DNA of 37,489 nt from Candidatus Aenigmatarchaeota archaeon. GTDB lineage: Archaea > Aenigmatarchaeota > Aenigmatarchaeia > CG10238-14 > SCSR01. How positions within the stretch are numbered: the stretch's first letter is position 1; each line of letters begins with the position of its first letter. Position numbers and translations under genes: made by a program. Shown in pieces: positions 24,150-30,886 of this stretch. A model generated the notes under the pieces. That model was not told where the DNA came from. It saw only the letters and a list, made by a program, of their open reading frames with translations, and did not search any database. Location: positions 1 through 37,489 of the forward strand of contig JBDRGB010000006.1 of NCBI GenBank assembly GCA_043818155.1, given 5' to 3'.

Positions 24150-24404
24150 CTACAGGTTGTACAGGAATATCCACACTACAGCCCAGACGAGCAGGAAAGT
24201 CACGAGGCTGTTCGACAGCAGCTGCGACCTCTTCTGCCCGCGGCCGAGCCTGAACATGACCGCGGCCGAAGCTGCGTACGCCGCCAGCGGAAGCAGCACC
24301 GCATACACCAGCGGCCCCGCCTCGAAATAGTTCGACAGCACGCCCGACGCCACTCCGAGCGCTGAGTATGCCGCCACGACCTTCTGTTCCAGTTTTATCT
24401 CCAT
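24150..24404 (-). CDS. Small three-TM protein, EMC6-like
   Basis: Three hydrophobic helices and C-terminal TFLLVWAVVWIFLYNL resembling the EMC6/Rab5ip-family end motif. Confidence 0.6.
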   Translation of the reverse strand: MEIKLEQKVVAAYSALGVASGVLSNYFEAGPLVYAVLLPLAAYAASAAVMFRLGRGQKRSQLLSNSLVTFLLVWAVVWIFLYNL

Positions 24405-24428
24405 CCAGCTTCAACCCAGAAACGCGCC

Positions 24429-25231
24429 TTACATCTTCTTCTCTTTTCCAAAGATAAAATCCTTTATCTTCCGCTGCCAGTTCTTCTCCTGCAGCTGCTG
24501 CGTCGTTATCCAGCTCTTTCGCACGTACGCTGGCAGCCTGCGCTGCGTCTTGATCAGCATGTCGACAAAATCCACGGTCCGCTGGTCGTGCGGATAGCCT
24601 ACGCCGAAGTCCACTCCCGCCTCCTTCTTTATCTCCTCGATTGCGCGGTCGCGCTCGACCTTCGCGATTATCGACGCCGCACTCACTATGGGGTAGCGCT
24701 TGTCCGCCTCGTTCTCCGCTATTATGCGGAACTTCTTCCCTTCGACCCGCACGTCCTTGCCGCGCTTCCCCTCGTTCAAAAATTCCAGCACTATCTTCTT
24801 GAAGCGCTCGGGCCGCGTGGTCAGCGCGTCCAGGTACACCTCCTCCCCGCCTATCATGCCGATTATCTCGGCCATGGTGCGCGCCTCGAGCAGGTTGAGG
24901 TTGCTGTTCTCGGACTTTTGCGCGTCTATCCTGCACGGCGGTATGGATATGGGCAGTATGCTCGATACGCGGCTCTCGGTCCGCAGCACGCGCTTGATGC
25001 TGTCGTACAGCTCCGCGCGCTTCGCGGGCGTCAGCTCCTTCGAGTCGCGCACGCCCATCCTCCTAAGCTTGGCGACTACGCGTTTCTCCGCCGTTATGCC
25101 GCATATGACCATCGGGCCGATGAGTGCGCCTCTTCTGGTAGGATGGCCTCTCAGCCGAGCCTATTTCCAGCCTCATCAATCCCGGTAATCAGCGTACTAC
25201 TATCCGTTTTTCTGTCGGAACTCTTTGCCAT
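24429..25231 (-). CDS. rnhB: Ribonuclease HII, intron-interrupted: join(25231..25165, 25132..24429), 256 aa if started at ATG 25231
   Basis: Removing 32 nt gives LITGIDEAGRGALIGPMVICG. Downstream motifs GVRDSKEL, ADKRYPIVSAASIIAKVERD and FGVGYPHD are intact. Confidence 0.9.
25133..25164 (-). other. Putative 32-nt archaeal (BHB/BHL-type) intron in rnhB
   Basis: RNA reads CUGG-AA^A-UAGG-CUC-GGCU-GAGA-GGCC-AU-CCUA-CCAG-AA^G: a 4-bp CUGG/CCAG helix, a 3-nt bulge, a UAGG/CCUA stem and a GNRA-capped hairpin. Cuts after the second bulge nucleotide give GAG GCT GGA AGA GGC. Confidence 0.85.
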
Positions 25232-26199
25232 AACTTTCCGTTCCTTTTTACCAAATTGAGTTTTTCTAATTCATTAAGTCTTCTGTAAACGGATTTCCAA
25301 GATTTGCCAGTTGATTTTGCCACCTCGGCAGTCGTTTTGGCTTTGCCTAAAATTGTCAATAAGTTGCTTTTTACTTTGGAAATCACAATCAGGTTCGAGT
25401 TTGCCCTAACCCAAAAATCCCTGCTTCCAGCTCTGAAATTGGTTACCATGCTCTCTTTTTTGAGAGCACCCAAAACCTTGCTTATGCGCGCCTTGGATCT
25501 GCCGAATTTCTCCGAAAGTTCTCTTGTTGGAATCGGGACCGAGAGGAGCAGGTATAGCTCGCTCTTTAAGAAATTTTTATCGTAATGTCGCTGTTTGTAG
25601 CAATTCATCATGCTATGGAATTTGGAGTTTTTGTCCCTGTGCAAGGACGTCATTCCAATTTTAAGGATTTTTTCCAAATTCCTCCTGTTAGAAATCTCAT
25701 ATTCTCTATCTTCTTTTCTGAACCTAGACTCTATTCCAAAATTTTCTAACATTTTTTCCAATATCGCGTTCCTTGATTTTTGGGAGATGCGCACGACTCT
25801 GCTTTTACATCTCCGGACAAACCTAACGCTCCCTTCCCCTGCGAAAAAGCCTTGCAGTACAAACTCGTATGATTTTTTATTCGAAATAGTTTTTCGGACT
25901 ATCTCTTTCCAAATTTTAACGAGTTTGACATTTGCAATCCTGTATATGAAATAAGGCTTTCTGGCCCTCTTGTCGGTGTAGAATTTATGTACGGCTTTTA
26001 TCGGCAGCCTTATCTCTCGGCCATCATCCGAGTAGACATAAATTCTAGCGTTCGGAATTGAACCAAAAATACTAGTCATGGTCTTATCAAAAAGTATGAC
26101 AAGCTCCTTTAAATTGTTCGTAAAAGTTATTTCACTACTCGTTGTGCTGTCGCCTTCAGCAAGCCATAACCCGACGCATCTAGAAACGTCTTTATGCAT
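25189..26199 (-). mobile_element. Free-standing LAGLIDADG homing-endonuclease-like gene with two C-terminal winged-HTH domains
   Basis: Motifs CVGLWLAEGD and VLQGFFAGEGS, HTH segments PTRELSEKFGRSKARISKVL and TTAEVAKSTGKSWKSVYRRL. Markedly more AT-rich than both flanks, with its own TTTTTATA box at about 26229-26222. Confidence 0.85.
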
Positions 26200-26266
26200 G
26201 CGTGCATATTGTAATTCCTAATATAAAAATATACCCTATGAAATATCCTCTACCAAAAAGAGGAAA

Positions 26267-26704
26267 TCATATCCAGTGCCTGTACCCCATCTTGAACACT
26301 ACGACATCCTCTGCGAGGTCCCATACGATGTGCAACACCATCGCAGCGAAGAACAGCCCGACTAGGAAGTACTCCGATATCGCCACGAGCAGCGACCCGC
26401 CGAGCGCGACGAAAAACACCATGAAGTTGTGCATCTTGTACTTCCGGGGCTTGCCGTACTCCTCGACCGTGCGCAGTTTGAGATAGCCGCGTATGCCGAC
26501 GTCCATCCAAAGCGGCACGTGGTCGAAGTCCAGCACCGCAGTGCCCAGGGCAACGGCCGCCGCCTTGCCCATGTCCAGCGTCAGGCTGGGCTGCACCGCG
26601 AAGTACAGCGCCGCGGCCAGCACCACGTGCACCGCAGCGTGCACCAGCGCGTAGTTGTACCCTATTATCCTCAGTTTCGGCATGGCCAAGCCAGACACCT
26701 TCAC
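26267..26704 (-). CDS. Membrane-bound metal-dependent hydrolase (YdjM/LexA-binding-like)
   Basis: TM helices carrying H...H, DFDH, MHN and HIVWD putative metal ligands. Confidence 0.7.
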   Translation of the reverse strand: MKVSGLAMPKLRIIGYNYALVHAAVHVVLAAALYFAVQPSLTLDMGKAAAVALGTAVLDFDHVPLWMDVGIRGYLKLRTVEEYGKPRKYKMHNFMVFFVALGGSLLVAISEYFLVGLFFAAMVLHIVWDLAEDVVVFKMGYRHWI

Positions 26705-27487: not shown

Positions 27488-27727
27488 CAGCGGAAGTGAG
27501 GTCTCGCAAGCGGCAATACCCGCCGCGCGCAAATATACATCAACCGCAGCACGCAGCGAACGCGTGTCCTCTGATAGAGGCGTGGCGCGGAAGCTGCAAA
27601 TGGCCCGCGCCCGCGATTAGCGGCCGGGCCGGCAATGCGGTTTTCCCGAACACCCACCTGTTTTGGAAATACCATAGAATTCGGTTAACGATAATAACAT
27701 CCGGACCGAAGAAGACTTTTGGAGATT

Positions 27728-30700
27728 ATGGAACGCGAAGAGCTGGTAGAAAAATTCTCGGAGTTCCTGAACGAGAGATGCATGGGCGACCTCGTCACCG
27801 CGCTCACCGAGAACAGAAAGTCCATCTCCGTAGACTTCTCGCTGCTCGACAAGTTCGACGTCGAGCTCGCGGACTACCTGATCGAGCAGCCTGAGGACGC
27901 GCTGTCCGCGGCCGAGGAGGCGATCAAGAGCATAGACACCGGCATGGTCGAGTCCAAGCTGCGCGTGCGCTTCTACAACCTGCCAGCGAGCAAGAACATC
28001 CGCATACGCAGCATACGCGCCGAGCACCTGGGCAAGATGCTGGTCGTCGACGGCGTTGTGAAGAGCGCGAGCGAGGTCCGTCCGGAGATTTCGGAGGCGG
28101 TTTTCGCATGCCCGGAGTGCGGCATGCGCATGTCCGTGATGCAGGCCGAGCGCAACATCAAGGCGCCGGACCGCTGCGAGTGCGGGTGCAAGCGCGGCTT
28201 CAGCCTGGTGGACCAGAAGATGTTCGACGTGCGCTGGGTCACGGTAGAGGAGCCGTTCGAGATAACCTCGGGCGAGCAGCCGAGCGAGCTGACCATACTC
28301 ATGAAGGAGGACCTGACGACCCCGCTGATGCAGAACCGCACAGAACCGGGCAACCGTATACTGATAACGGGCGTGCTCAAGCACGTGCCGCGGGTTTCAA
28401 GGGACGCGTCGTCGCGCATGATGGACATCTACCTCGACGCGAACCACGTCGACTCGATCGAGGTAGGGTGGGAGGAGCTGAACATCAGCCCGGACGACGA
28501 GCAGAAGATCATCGAGCTGTCGAAGGACCCGCTGCTGTACGACAAGCTCGTGGCGTCGCTCGCTCCGACCATCTACGGCCTGAACGACATCAAGGAGTCC
28601 ATCATCCTGCAGATGTTCGCGGGCGAGCAGCACGTGCTCCGCGACAAGACGCGCATACGCGGCAACCTCCATTTGTTGTTGGTCGGCGATCCGGCGTGCC
28701 TCGTCGCGGACGAGCGCATCGTGCTTGCGGACGGCACCATCATGAAGATGGCCGAGGCCGGAACGCGGCACCTGCAGAAGATAGACCTACACGTGCACAC
28801 GGGCAGCGGCCGCAACTACGGCCGGGCCGACAGGTTCCATGTGTACCGGAAGCAGCCGGTCATGGAGATCGTCACGGAAACGGGAAAGAGTATAAAGGGC
28901 TCGTACAACCAGCCGGTGCTCGTGCTCGATAACACGAGTAACGTCTGGAAGAGGCTGGACGAAATCAGGATCGGCGACAGGGTGCGGACGCTGTCGAAAA
29001 TCGAGTGCAAAATCAAGTCGCCGGTGGAGACTGGATGGAGCGACAAGGATTATTATCACAAGAAGCCAGAGTGGAAGATTAAAGTCCCCGCGCACGTCGA
29101 TGAGAAGCTGGCCGCGATATTCGGCTACGTCGTCGCGGACGGATGGGTGCAGAAGAACAGGGTCGGCTTCGTTATCAGCAAGGACGAGTCCGACATCCTC
29201 CCGGAACTGGAGTGTGCCTTCGCGGACTGCTTCGGCGCGCCAGTGTCCACGTACGTGCACAGGCGGGCCAGCAGGCGCATCGCGTACTACCAAGTGAACA
29301 GGACGCACGCGGCCGAGCTGCTTCAGTTCCTGAAGGAGAAGCGCGTGCCCGGCCTGATTTTCAAGTCCGGCAACCGTGTTGTCGCGTCGTTCCTGCGCTG
29401 GCTGTACGAAGGTGATGGCACGGCGTTCGCGAACGGCCGCGGCCGCACGTCTGTAAGCCTGCGCTCGGCCAGCATCGAGCTGCTGCGGGACGTGCAGATG
29501 CTTCTCCTGAGGTTCGGCATACATTCGCGAATCCTGTGGGACGGCAGGGGAAGCGCGTCCAAGATAGATGGCCGTGTGATAAAAGGCTATCCCAGCGGGA
29601 CGCTGATGATACGCAGGTCCGGGGACATACTACGGTTCTTCAAGAACGTCGGATTCGCGAGCGCGAAGAAGAAGGATAGGCTCGCAAAGGTCGTCGAGTA
29701 CGCCAAGGCGCACGTCCGACGCGTGCATAAGGAAAGGGCTGAGAAAATCGTGCGCATAAGCCGTCATCCGGCCGAGGACGTTTTCGACATAGAGGTGCCC
29801 GTGCACCACAGGTTCGTGGCGAACGGCATAGTCGTGCACAACACGGCAAAGTCGCAGATCATGAAGCTCGCGTCCACGATGATACCGCGCGGCAAGTATG
29901 CGTCCGGAACGGCAGTCTCGGGCGCAGGCCTTACCGCGACGGTCGTGCGCGAGGAAAAGTTCGTCGGCGGCTGGGTGCTCGAGGCGGGCGCGCTCGTGCT
30001 CGCGAACCGCTCGATTTGCGCGATCGACGAGTTCAGCCACGTGGCGCCGCATGACATGATCAAGCTGCAGGAGGCGATGTCGCTCGAGACCATCTCCATC
30101 GCGAAGGCTTCCATCGTCGCGACGCTCCCGGCGCAGACCGCCATCCTCGCGGGCGCCAACCCCAAGTTCGGACGATTCGACCCTTATATCCCGATCAAGG
30201 AGCAGCTCGATATAAACGAGGTCATGCTCAGCAGGTTCGACCTGCGGTTCGCGCTCAAGGACGTGCCCAACCCGGAAACGGACAAGAAGATAGCCGACCA
30301 CGTCCTGAAGATGCGGCACTTCGAGGAGGACGCGGCATTGCCGGCGATAGACCCCGCGTTCCTGCGCAAGTACATCGCCTACGCGCGCGCGAACGTGCAC
30401 CCGAAGCTCACGGTGGAGGCGGGCGAGAAGCTGAAGGAGTTCTACCTGGAGATGCGCGCCATGAGCGGCGAGGACTCGGCCGTCTCCATAACCGTGCGCC
30501 AGTACGACTCGCTAATACGCATGTCCGAGGCGTCGGCGAAGGTCCGGCTCAGCGAAACGGTGGACATCGAGGACGCTCAGCGCGCCATAAACCTCATGAG
30601 CCTCTCGCTGCGCCAGTTCGGGTTCGAGCCCAGCACGGGTAAGATAGACATCGACCGCGTCGAAGGGCAGCGTATGACGTCCGCGCAGCGCGGCAAGACC

Positions 30701-30886
30701 AAGATAATGATGGACGTGATAGCCGCGCTCGAGGCTGAGCTGGGCAAGGAGATGCCCAGGGACGAGCTCGTCCGGCGCGCGGCCGCCGAGGGCATAGACG
30801 ACGCCGAGGACATCTTGCGCAAGCTGCTGCAGATAGGCGACCTTTACGAGCCGAGGCAGAACGTGATCAGCCGCGTGCACGGGTAG
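27728..30886 (+). CDS. mcm: Replicative helicase MCM with one intein (about 670 aa after splicing)
   Basis: Zn finger CPECG...CECGC, Walker A GDPA|TAKS split by an intein, Walker B AIDEF, AGANP, arginine finger SRFDL, GGAG ribosome-binding site before ATG 27728. Confidence 0.97.
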   Translation: MEREELVEKFSEFLNERCMGDLVTALTENRKSISVDFSLLDKFDVELADYLIEQPEDALSAAEEAIKSIDTGMVESKLRVRFYNLPASKNIRIRSIRAEHLGKMLVVDGVVKSASEVRPEISEAVFACPECGMRMSVMQAERNIKAPDRCECGCKRGFSLVDQKMFDVRWVTVEEPFEITSGEQPSELTILMKEDLTTPLMQNRTEPGNRILITGVLKHVPRVSRDASSRMMDIYLDANHVDSIEVGWEELNISPDDEQKIIELSKDPLLYDKLVASLAPTIYGLNDIKESIILQMFAGEQHVLRDKTRIRGNLHLLLVGDPACLVADERIVLADGTIMKMAEAGTRHLQKIDLHVHTGSGRNYGRADRFHVYRKQPVMEIVTETGKSIKGSYNQPVLVLDNTSNVWKRLDEIRIGDRVRTLSKIECKIKSPVETGWSDKDYYHKKPEWKIKVPAHVDEKLAAIFGYVVADGWVQKNRVGFVISKDESDILPELECAFADCFGAPVSTYVHRRASRRIAYYQVNRTHAAELLQFLKEKRVPGLIFKSGNRVVASFLRWLYEGDGTAFANGRGRTSVSLRSASIELLRDVQMLLLRFGIHSRILWDGRGSASKIDGRVIKGYPSGTLMIRRSGDILRFFKNVGFASAKKKDRLAKVVEYAKAHVRRVHKERAEKIVRISRHPAEDVFDIEVPVHHRFVANGIVVHNTAKSQIMKLASTMIPRGKYASGTAVSGAGLTATVVREEKFVGGWVLEAGALVLANRSICAIDEFSHVAPHDMIKLQEAMSLETISIAKASIVATLPAQTAILAGANPKFGRFDPYIPIKEQLDINEVMLSRFDLRFALKDVPNPETDKKIADHVLKMRHFEEDAALPAIDPAFLRKYIAYARANVHPKLTVEAGEKLKEFYLEMRAMSGEDSAVSITVRQYDSLIRMSEASAKVRLSETVDIEDAQRAINLMSLSLRQFGFEPSTGKIDIDRVEGQRMTSAQRGKTKIMMDVIAALEAELGKEMPRDELVRRAAAEGIDDAEDILRKLLQIGDLYEPRQNVISRVHG
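28697..29842 (+). mobile_element. 382-aa intein with LAGLIDADG homing endonuclease in the MCM Walker A motif
   Basis: Begins CLVADERIVLADG and ends VFDIEV...FVANGIVVHN followed by Thr. Endonuclease motifs IFGYVVADG and FLRWLYEGDG. Confidence 0.95.

Follow-up and report, generated by a model that had tools for sequence, protein, structure and literature searches.

An intron in the cbf5 pre-mRNA of Crenarchaeota has reportedly been described by Watanabe in 2002 and by Yoshinari in 2006. In eukaryotes, HAC1 and XBP1 undergo an unconventional, regulatory mRNA splicing that uses the nuclease IRE1, and in phage T4 the pair mobE/I-TevIII is said to be an example of collaborative homing. Among the papers searched, PMC5829648 and a 2025 structural paper (PMC12397907) included, cbf5 is the sole mRNA of an archaeon for which splicing by the tRNA endonuclease is cited, and gains and losses of its intron among relatives are recounted in part of Yokobori 2009 (PMC2738675). 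A passage of PMC8718801 links HAC1/XBP1-type splicing to RtcB, and one of PMC6083498 describes how, in cyanophage S-PM2, the free-standing endonuclease F-CphI cuts intron-less psbA at the insertion site while a group I intron protects its carrier. Here we analyze rnhB, the gene for RNase HII, in a stretch of 37,489 nt from a Candidatus Aenigmatarchaeota archaeon (contig JBDRGB010000006.1, referred to as the window), where 32 nt splitting the catalytic motif are most probably an archaeal EndA-type (bulge-helix-bulge) intron of the pre-mRNA, as judged from sequence comparison. This putative intron belongs to a family of mini-introns of 14-40 nt with a patchy occurrence in Aenigmatarchaeota and with members in some Asgard and Thermoproteota genomes. 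A sequence-only reading of the window had proposed an intron of the tRNA type, which is now supported by covariation between exon and intron and by the presence of EndA and RtcB in the genome. It had also known of no intron described in rnhB, and our full-text searches agree, as they found none in print, with supplements and most subscription journals outside their scope.

The interrupted rnhB gene and its predicted fold

The rnhB gene lies on the minus strand, where the codons for GIDEAG are followed by 32 nt (25164-25133) and then by those for RGALIGPMV... The frame from the ATG at 25231 encodes MAKSSDRKTDSSTLITGIDEAG and, unspliced, continues into NRLG and a stop (open reading frame [ORF] 25151-25231), just as the sequence-only reading had it, and the second rnhB frame carries RGALIGPMVICGI... 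and ends at the stop codon 24429-24431. The only rnhB piece in the ORF list is a 227-aa frame from Met 25112, so that the 5′ exon is missed, as had been pointed out. Compared with the 3′ exon alone, the Pfam family RNase_HII (PF01351) gives an E-value of 2.7e-29 over profile positions 15-199 of 199, and because the match begins only at position 15, the 227-aa ORF lacks the catalytic Asp-Glu. These two residues are encoded in the short 5′ exon, which is in frame with the 3′ exon only once the 32 nt are removed; without splicing, the sole possible products are a 26-aa peptide or an enzyme without Asp-Glu. The parts of the split gene are as follows.

25165..25231, minus strand: rnhB 5′ exon, from the ATG at 25231 (start codon inferred) to base 1 of the Arg codon (MAKSSDRKTDSSTLITGIDEAG + A)
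25133..25164, minus strand: predicted 32-nt relaxed (bulge-helix-loop) intron, position type A1 (GGN A/GA, the slash marking the insertion point here and below)
24429..25132, minus strand: rnhB 3′ exon, from the GA of the Arg codon through GALIGPMV... to the stop codon 24429-24431

The nearest public proteins, with 81-93% identity and 256-258 aa (P0001-5 and P0007), run uninterrupted through the motif, and another (P0006, 227 aa) begins at the internal Met, showing that gene callers overlook the 5′ exon. At three other rnhB loci (L162, L195, and L288), GIEEAG replaces GIDEAG, and no insert is present there.

All of the fold elements listed by the sequence-only reading are present in the window. 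Together with the AAG of the 3′ cut, their positions are these.

25172..25177, minus strand: outer exon-exon helix, 5′ strand GAUGAG (Asp-Glu codons), 6/6 pairs
25167..25170, minus strand: central helix, exon strand CUGG, pairing 4/4 with CCAG 25138-25135
25166-25164, minus strand: 5′ bulge AAA, directly after CUGG
25163-25160 / 25142-25139, minus strand: inner helix UAGG / CCUA
25156-25145, minus strand: hairpin GGCU-GAGA-GGCC
25135..25138, minus strand: central helix, intron strand CCAG; the adjoining AAG 25134-25132 contains the 3′ cut
25119..25124, minus strand: outer exon-exon helix, 3′ strand CUCAUC (Leu-Ile codons), partner of GAUGAG

We applied the archaeal bulge-helix-bulge rule, which takes a helix of 4 bp with bulges of 3 nt and cuts after the second bulge nucleotide. 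The rule takes out exactly 25164-25133 (32 nt) and leaves GCU GGA A/GA GGC, which reads A-G-R-G, giving a predicted spliced junction ...GAGGCTGGAA/GAGGCGCACTC (as DNA, ...GCTGGAA/GAGGCGCA...). The strict bulge-helix-bulge form (hBHBh′) is absent, as the 3′ cut site lies within a loop of 8-10 nt before the outer helix, and the motif is of the relaxed bulge-helix-loop form that the sequence-only reading had recognized. This form is still classed among archaeal introns in the relevant part of PMC5829648. At least five of the six outer-helix pairs are found at 5/5 loci with an insert at the window's position compared with 14/72 intron-less loci, and where intron-bearing alleles of that type have GAUGAG...CUCAUC, the intron-less locus L221 has GACGAG...CUGAUA. 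An Rfam search of 24300-26400 with E up to 1 returned chance-level matches to U6 (18.1 bits) and sR10 (15.1 bits), far under their gathering scores.

In the mechanism we propose, the transcript would fold by pairing of the exon strand CUGG with the intron strand CCAG, exposing AAA and AAG as cut sites. The EndA of this genome would then cut after the second nucleotide of each, and RtcB would join the exons, re-forming the Arg codon and the catalytic GIDEAGRG.

Homologous inserts and the splicing machinery

The order to which this genome belongs was surveyed in 118 genomes, 114 of which have an rnhB match (the other four are 80-86% complete), and rnhB is present in all 41 nearest genomes. After three loci were dropped as contig-end fragments or weak matches (G105, G067, and G096), 111 full loci were analyzed. 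An insert of 14-40 nt interrupts 39 of them, and the other 72 read GxDExGRG without interruption. There are three insert positions, all within 8 nt in the motif.

Type B: directly after the Glu codon (GAR/), phase 0, 14-23 nt, 20 loci
Type A1: one base into the Arg codon (GGN A/GA), phase 1, 31-32 nt, 5 loci including that of the window's genome (G000) and its sister genome (G001)
Type A2: two bases into the Arg codon (GGN AG/A), phase 2, 28-40 nt, 14 loci

Beyond the order, other families of the class contributed 5 inserts (31-33 nt) and 12 intact genes among 17 loci picked by hand for a late start or stop among the matches listed (~150 of 384), a biased choice from which no frequency follows. 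A collection of species-representative genomes showed an insert in 12/74 loci, its carriers including two Promethearchaeota metagenome-assembled genomes (MAGs), one Thermoproteota MAG, and two other archaea, and metagenome contigs showed one in 11/69. No rnhB insert longer than 40 nt was found among the loci examined. The shortest has 14 nt (L050, genome G103) and no inner helix, with 11 contiguous outer exon-exon pairs adjoining the central helix, a mirror-image relaxed form of the window's motif.

The 49 non-redundant introns (39 from the order, 5 from other families of the class, and 5 from other phyla) allowed us to examine the splicing rule comparatively. Thirty-eight shift the frame, 11 are in frame but contain a stop, and none is readable, yet the rule restores G[ILM]DE[AVS]GRG in 49/49. 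Central-helix positions are paired in 188 of 196 cases, and sliding the register by 1-3 nt lowers this to 53-71, except for a slide of -3. Pairing is retained as synonymous exon positions change: Asp GAC goes with ...CGUC and GAU with ...CAUC (GACG/CGUC compared with GAUG/CAUC), the Gly codons GGG, GGC, GGU, and GGA are matched by CCCA, GCCA, ACCA, and UCCU, and the compensatory sets comprise UGGG/CCCA, UGGC/GCCA, UGGU/ACCA, GGGA/UCCU, and CGGC/GCCG. The bulges are A-rich (AAA, AGA, AGU, or CAA on one side and AAG or AAA on the other), and the inner helix varies in sequence by lineage but keeps its pairing, mostly with 2-11 contiguous pairs. The motif is likewise restored by this rule in each of the 11 metagenome inserts, 10 with 4/4 pairs and 1 with 3/4. 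In all, 49 + 11 homologous inserts back the sequence-only reading, in which the same rule removes 25164-25133 and recovers E-A-G-R-G. Taken together, the common rule, the covariation, and the selection on the 3′ exon described below are strong evidence that the insert would be removed from the RNA at exactly these bonds, as the archaeal splicing endonuclease does.

The same comparison bears on ribosomal bypassing, known from phage T4 gene 60, in which the ribosome would hop over the hairpin and leave the RNA intact. A short structured insert directly after a Gly codon, soon followed by a stop, would suit hopping, and splicing is likewise a prediction. However, there are no matching take-off and landing codons, as in the window GGA is followed by AAU and no GGA precedes AGA GGC, and in type B GAA would need to match CAA. 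Neither does hopping predict a 4-bp helix with 3-nt bulges in the register that restores the frame, in three codon phases, and we regard it as highly improbable.

The window is contig C6 of a genome bin of 534 kb in 45 contigs, 85% complete, that encodes an archaeal TBP, an intein-bearing MCM, and an archaeal-type AspRS. Its EndA is present as two ORFs of ~190 aa (C19, 4108-4629, and C35, 25-624; loci L002 and L001), one of them at a contig end, each with the N and C domains (PF02778 and PF01974). They share 92% identity over 188 aa, their C-terminal halves being the same, and may stem either from a genuine duplication or from a mixture of two strains in the bin. The protein aligns end to end with the subunit of the M. 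jannaschii homotetramer, and both copies have 8 extra residues, including a Lys, just before HEHTK when compared with the alpha unit of M. kandleri, a region near the catalytic His where a passage of PMC5829648 places the specificity loops. As far as can be seen, this EndA is a single alpha-type unit, neither heteromeric nor epsilon2, and here the sequence-only reading, which had associated relaxed motifs with heteromeric or epsilon2 enzymes, does not apply. RtcB is also encoded (C38), cut by the contig end. Aragorn predicted an intron for 9 of 26 tRNA genes, with one doubtful case. It also returned a tRNA-His(atg) with a 1573-nt 'intron' (C35, 12008-13673), which is probably a false call but could conceal an ORF-bearing intron.

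Several observations weigh against an intron in the window. RNAfold gave -30.3 kcal/mol (z = -1.63), and 13 of 200 shuffled sequences folded equally well; moreover, another fold has the minimum energy, and the constrained bulge-helix-bulge fold, at -28.0 kcal/mol, lies 2.3 kcal/mol higher. Across the family, sliding the register by -3 still pairs 127/196 positions through G-U pairs with the U-rich inner helix, and the central helix is poor in L032 (3/4 pairs) and L071 (where the best frame-restoring parse by script failed). Alpha-type EndA has long been held to cut strict motifs only, according to the introduction of PMC5829648, and this counts here because the window's 3′ cut site lies in a loop of 8-10 nt and not in a strict bulge; the same paper, in a passage on DPANN, links loop-bearing alpha4 enzymes with disrupted tRNAs. 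The cbf5 gene of this genome is one open frame with no insert, and a scan of the genome for other frame-restoring bulge-helix-bulge inserts gave no second mRNA intron, a result that is uninformative on absence. Stricter filters reduced its 2433 raw candidates to 71 and dropped rnhB itself, the positive control, because its brief 5′ exon falls within the A+T-rich end of the neighboring endonuclease gene and scores as non-coding. Most of the candidates are gaps between neighboring genes, and the best-looking one (C11, 19030-19054) proved to be the end of one gene and the start of the next. Lastly, none of the 11 sequencing runs listed is of RNA.

The single-sequence fold is thus not significant, and the support beyond chance is comparative. 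That fold, the fragmentation of the bin, and the fact that contig pieces from the sequencing data match only 24429-25035 and 25331-25400 and none crosses the insert, which in itself speaks neither for nor against it, would also fit a broken gene, either a pseudogene or an assembly artifact, with a coincidental fold. However, the 32-nt insert recurs, with 3 bases changed, in the independently assembled sister genome, which contradicts the assembly error considered by the sequence-only reading, and homologous inserts occur in dozens of assemblies; 0 of 60 inserts are readable, yet 60/60 give the motif under one rule. The decay of the 3′ exon that had also been considered is not seen: between the two genomes, nonsynonymous (dN) and synonymous (dS) divergence are 0.12 and 0.65 (dN/dS 0.19), the 3′ exon is under purifying selection, and it is the single rnhB match in the window's genome. 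All 111 3′ exons of the order are open for at least 204 aa. A broken gene has next to no likelihood in our view.

Patchy distribution and the upstream LAGLIDADG gene

We placed the inserts on a gene tree of 3′ exon proteins (quick IQ-TREE, LG+G4), which required at least 24 changes of intron presence or absence, 14 of them forced by well-supported branches. The clade of the window's genome and its sister is nested among six intron-less genes, and their genus is mixed, with an intron in G000, G001, and L220 and none in L221, L222, P0001-5, and P0007; the intron of L220 is of type A1 and has an inner hairpin unlike the window's. Genus g6 has A2 in four members, A1 in one, and no insert in five, and genus g36 has A1 in two and B in two. 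A2 introns of different genera share an inner UAAGUC...GAUUU hairpin (L012, L014, L068, L069, L071, L072, L097, and L225), and this similarity in sequence points to common descent rather than repeated new origin. Asgard-type inserts share another core, UAAUUC...GAAUUA.

This distribution bears on whether the intron is retained to regulate RNase HII, with splicing efficiency setting the enzyme level or tying it to tRNA-processing capacity. Its position inside the catalytic motif, which renders unspliced mRNA harmless, and its persistence in many lineages without an endonuclease gene would be in keeping with a regulatory role. However, 72 of the 111 relatives do well without the intron and the closest relatives differ in its presence, which neutrality or parasitism fits better, so we consider regulation unlikely.

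In the window, the upstream side of the split gene is occupied by the following features.

25189..26199, minus strand: free-standing gene (336 aa) like those of LAGLIDADG homing endonucleases, with a pair of winged helices at the C-terminus
26200..26266, minus strand: 5′ end of the cassette, an A+T-rich promoter-like stretch; homology to the sister genome ends at the stop codon of the upstream gene
26267..26704, minus strand: conserved upstream neighbor (ends ...FKMGYRHWI), with the same C-terminus just upstream of rnhB in many relatives

The neighbor at 26267..26704 has no Pfam match, and as its C-terminus recurs beside rnhB, it marks the ancestral gene order; the A+T-rich stretch would act as a promoter. 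The last 14 codons of the endonuclease ORF overlap the rnhB 5′ exon (25189-25231) in another frame. The rnhB leader at this overlap is native to the genus, as uninterrupted relatives read M..K....DGSTLITG[IV]DEAGRG, L221 and L222 likewise, and this 14-residue N-terminal extension is also present in alleles free of the endonuclease. Pfam LAGLIDADG_3 matches the ORF at 7.9e-9 and 36.1 bits (cut-off 22.5), together with families of helix-turn-helix (HTH) and winged-helix domains, while a PDB sequence search with the protein gave no match. The AlphaFold (AF2) model has a mean predicted local distance difference test score (pLDDT) of 90.2. In Foldseek, its first ~200 residues are most like E-DreI, I-DmoI, and I-Tsp061I, with TM-scores (target) of 0.56-0.62 to E-DreI and I-DmoI, and SelB-like winged helices follow; the LAGLIDADG domain of WhiA was also matched. 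We thus regard ORF 25189-26199, on the strength of the modeled fold, as the gene of a putative I-DmoI-like LAGLIDADG endonuclease.

The gene lies in a segment with a GC content of 0.375-0.443 in surroundings of ~0.55-0.66 and is absent from the sister genome, where the upstream gene and rnhB are 76 nt apart, compared with ~1.08 kb in the window. Among the 118 genomes, only G000, G004, G078, and G081 have strong homologues (E < 1e-78), which are 41-43% identical, full length, and directly upstream of rnhB on the same strand. The same arrangement is found in three other families (G133, G142, and G151, all full length but for G151, which a contig end truncates), and the metagenome contig L277 has a homologue directly upstream of rnhB too. 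Of the homologues found beside rnhB, 8/8 adjoin a type-A insert and none adjoins an intact or type-B gene. The six full-length copies are intact, with GLWLAEG invariant, GFFAGEG in five (the other has GFFAVEG), and the motif Glu conserved. Relative to the GxDE codons, their ORFs end 5-11 nt ahead or 8-11 nt within, and those of the window, L014, L068, L069, L214, and L215 have no stop of their own and run in another frame into the leader or initial codons of rnhB. A test for loss by way of remnants in front of orphan introns was considered and dropped, because the sequence that encodes the endonuclease tail is at the same time the native leader and Shine-Dalgarno region of rnhB, which makes likeness there uninformative.

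These observations suggest a refinement of the intron reading, compatible with it, in which intron and endonuclease form a selfish two-part mobile element. The endonuclease would cut intron-less rnhB in the stretch coding for GIDEAGRG, repair from an allele with both parts would copy the endonuclease gene and mini-intron together, and by splitting the target the intron would protect its carrier ('collaborative homing'), a logic that may account for the patchiness. The 1.0-kb low-GC cassette, which the sister genome lacks at the corresponding place between the two flanking genes, the pairing with type-A inserts in all eight cases, the six intact copies with both LAGLIDADG motifs and their Glu, the closeness in fold to the archaeal intron-encoded I-DmoI and I-Tsp061I, and the frequent changes of intron presence, with both kinds of allele in the same genus, all favor such an element. 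However, cleavage activity and target are presumed, 35 of the 39 intron carriers of the order have no endonuclease gene, no type-B carrier has one, and a search of five genomes of other phyla with inserts found none. The carriers are also related and therefore not independent (G078 and G081 belong to one genus), most loci were seen with only 200-300 nt upstream, the whole-genome search covering the order, and a LAGLIDADG fold with HTH domains can be a regulator, WhiA being among the fold matches. On balance, a two-part element is an attractive candidate to which we give somewhat less than an even chance. Tentatively, and with rather less assurance, we suggest a fuller history: an element new to archaea, with an upstream I-DmoI-like endonuclease and a protein-spliced mini-intron as its immunity half, would have spread as a pair and lost the endonuclease, leaving orphan introns to drift over three positions and across phyla including Asgard.

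Two other features were seen in the window. The MCM helicase gene (27719-30886, plus strand) contains an intein with LAGLIDADG_3 (Intein_splicing 2.3e-14, LAGLIDADG_3 8.5e-19), a second homing-type element 1.5 kb from the one beside rnhB, and from 32800 to the contig end at 37489 there is a long low-GC stretch (0.37-0.48 compared with ~0.6 elsewhere) that may be foreign DNA.

Comparison with known systems

What is new here is very probably the occurrence of very short, mobile bulge-helix-bulge introns in the RNase HII motif, in several phyla and partly linked to an endonuclease. Like the cbf5 intron, the rnhB intron has been gained or lost among relatives. It differs in its gene and in its hosts, Aenigmatarchaeota together with some Promethearchaeota and Thermoproteota MAGs, in its much shorter length (14-40 nt), in its three insertion points within 8 nt of the catalytic motif, in a host EndA that is a single alpha-type unit and not heteromeric, and in the endonuclease gene that adjoins it in some carriers. 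With a second gene, mRNA splicing by the tRNA endonuclease would prove to be no crenarchaeal oddity, and rnhB exists in dozens of natural variants across genomes of DPANN, Asgard, and Thermoproteota. This natural mutational series, of 14-40 nt, in three phases and from strict to relaxed, could be used to probe the range of a single-unit EndA. It also matters for annotation, as callers truncate split rnhB genes, which then seem to lack their catalytic residues and may be taken for defective.

Compared with HAC1/XBP1, the rnhB intron would share the cutting of mRNA by a protein enzyme at paired stem-loops, RtcB-type ligation, and a change of frame, although it is neither cut by IRE1 nor eukaryotic. 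The archaeal rRNA and tRNA introns that encode I-DmoI and I-Tsp061I have the same splicing motif and an enzyme of similar fold, but the endonuclease gene beside rnhB is located upstream of the host gene and not within the intron, and its product carries two additional winged-helix domains; the host gene is protein-coding, and no insert exceeds 40 nt. The link to a homing endonuclease offers a route for the origin and spread of introns in protein-coding genes, and if the two-part element is real, mRNA splicing of the tRNA type would be a general mechanism by which archaea tolerate mobile DNA. Unlike the S-PM2 and T4 systems, this locus is on an archaeal chromosome, its mini-intron would be spliced by proteins and not be a self-splicing group I intron, and its endonuclease is of the LAGLIDADG and not the Endo VII/HNH kind, with an activity that is predicted here. 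Like the collaborative homing of S-PM2, it places a free-standing endonuclease gene beside a conserved gene interrupted by an intron, and that intron would shield the target.

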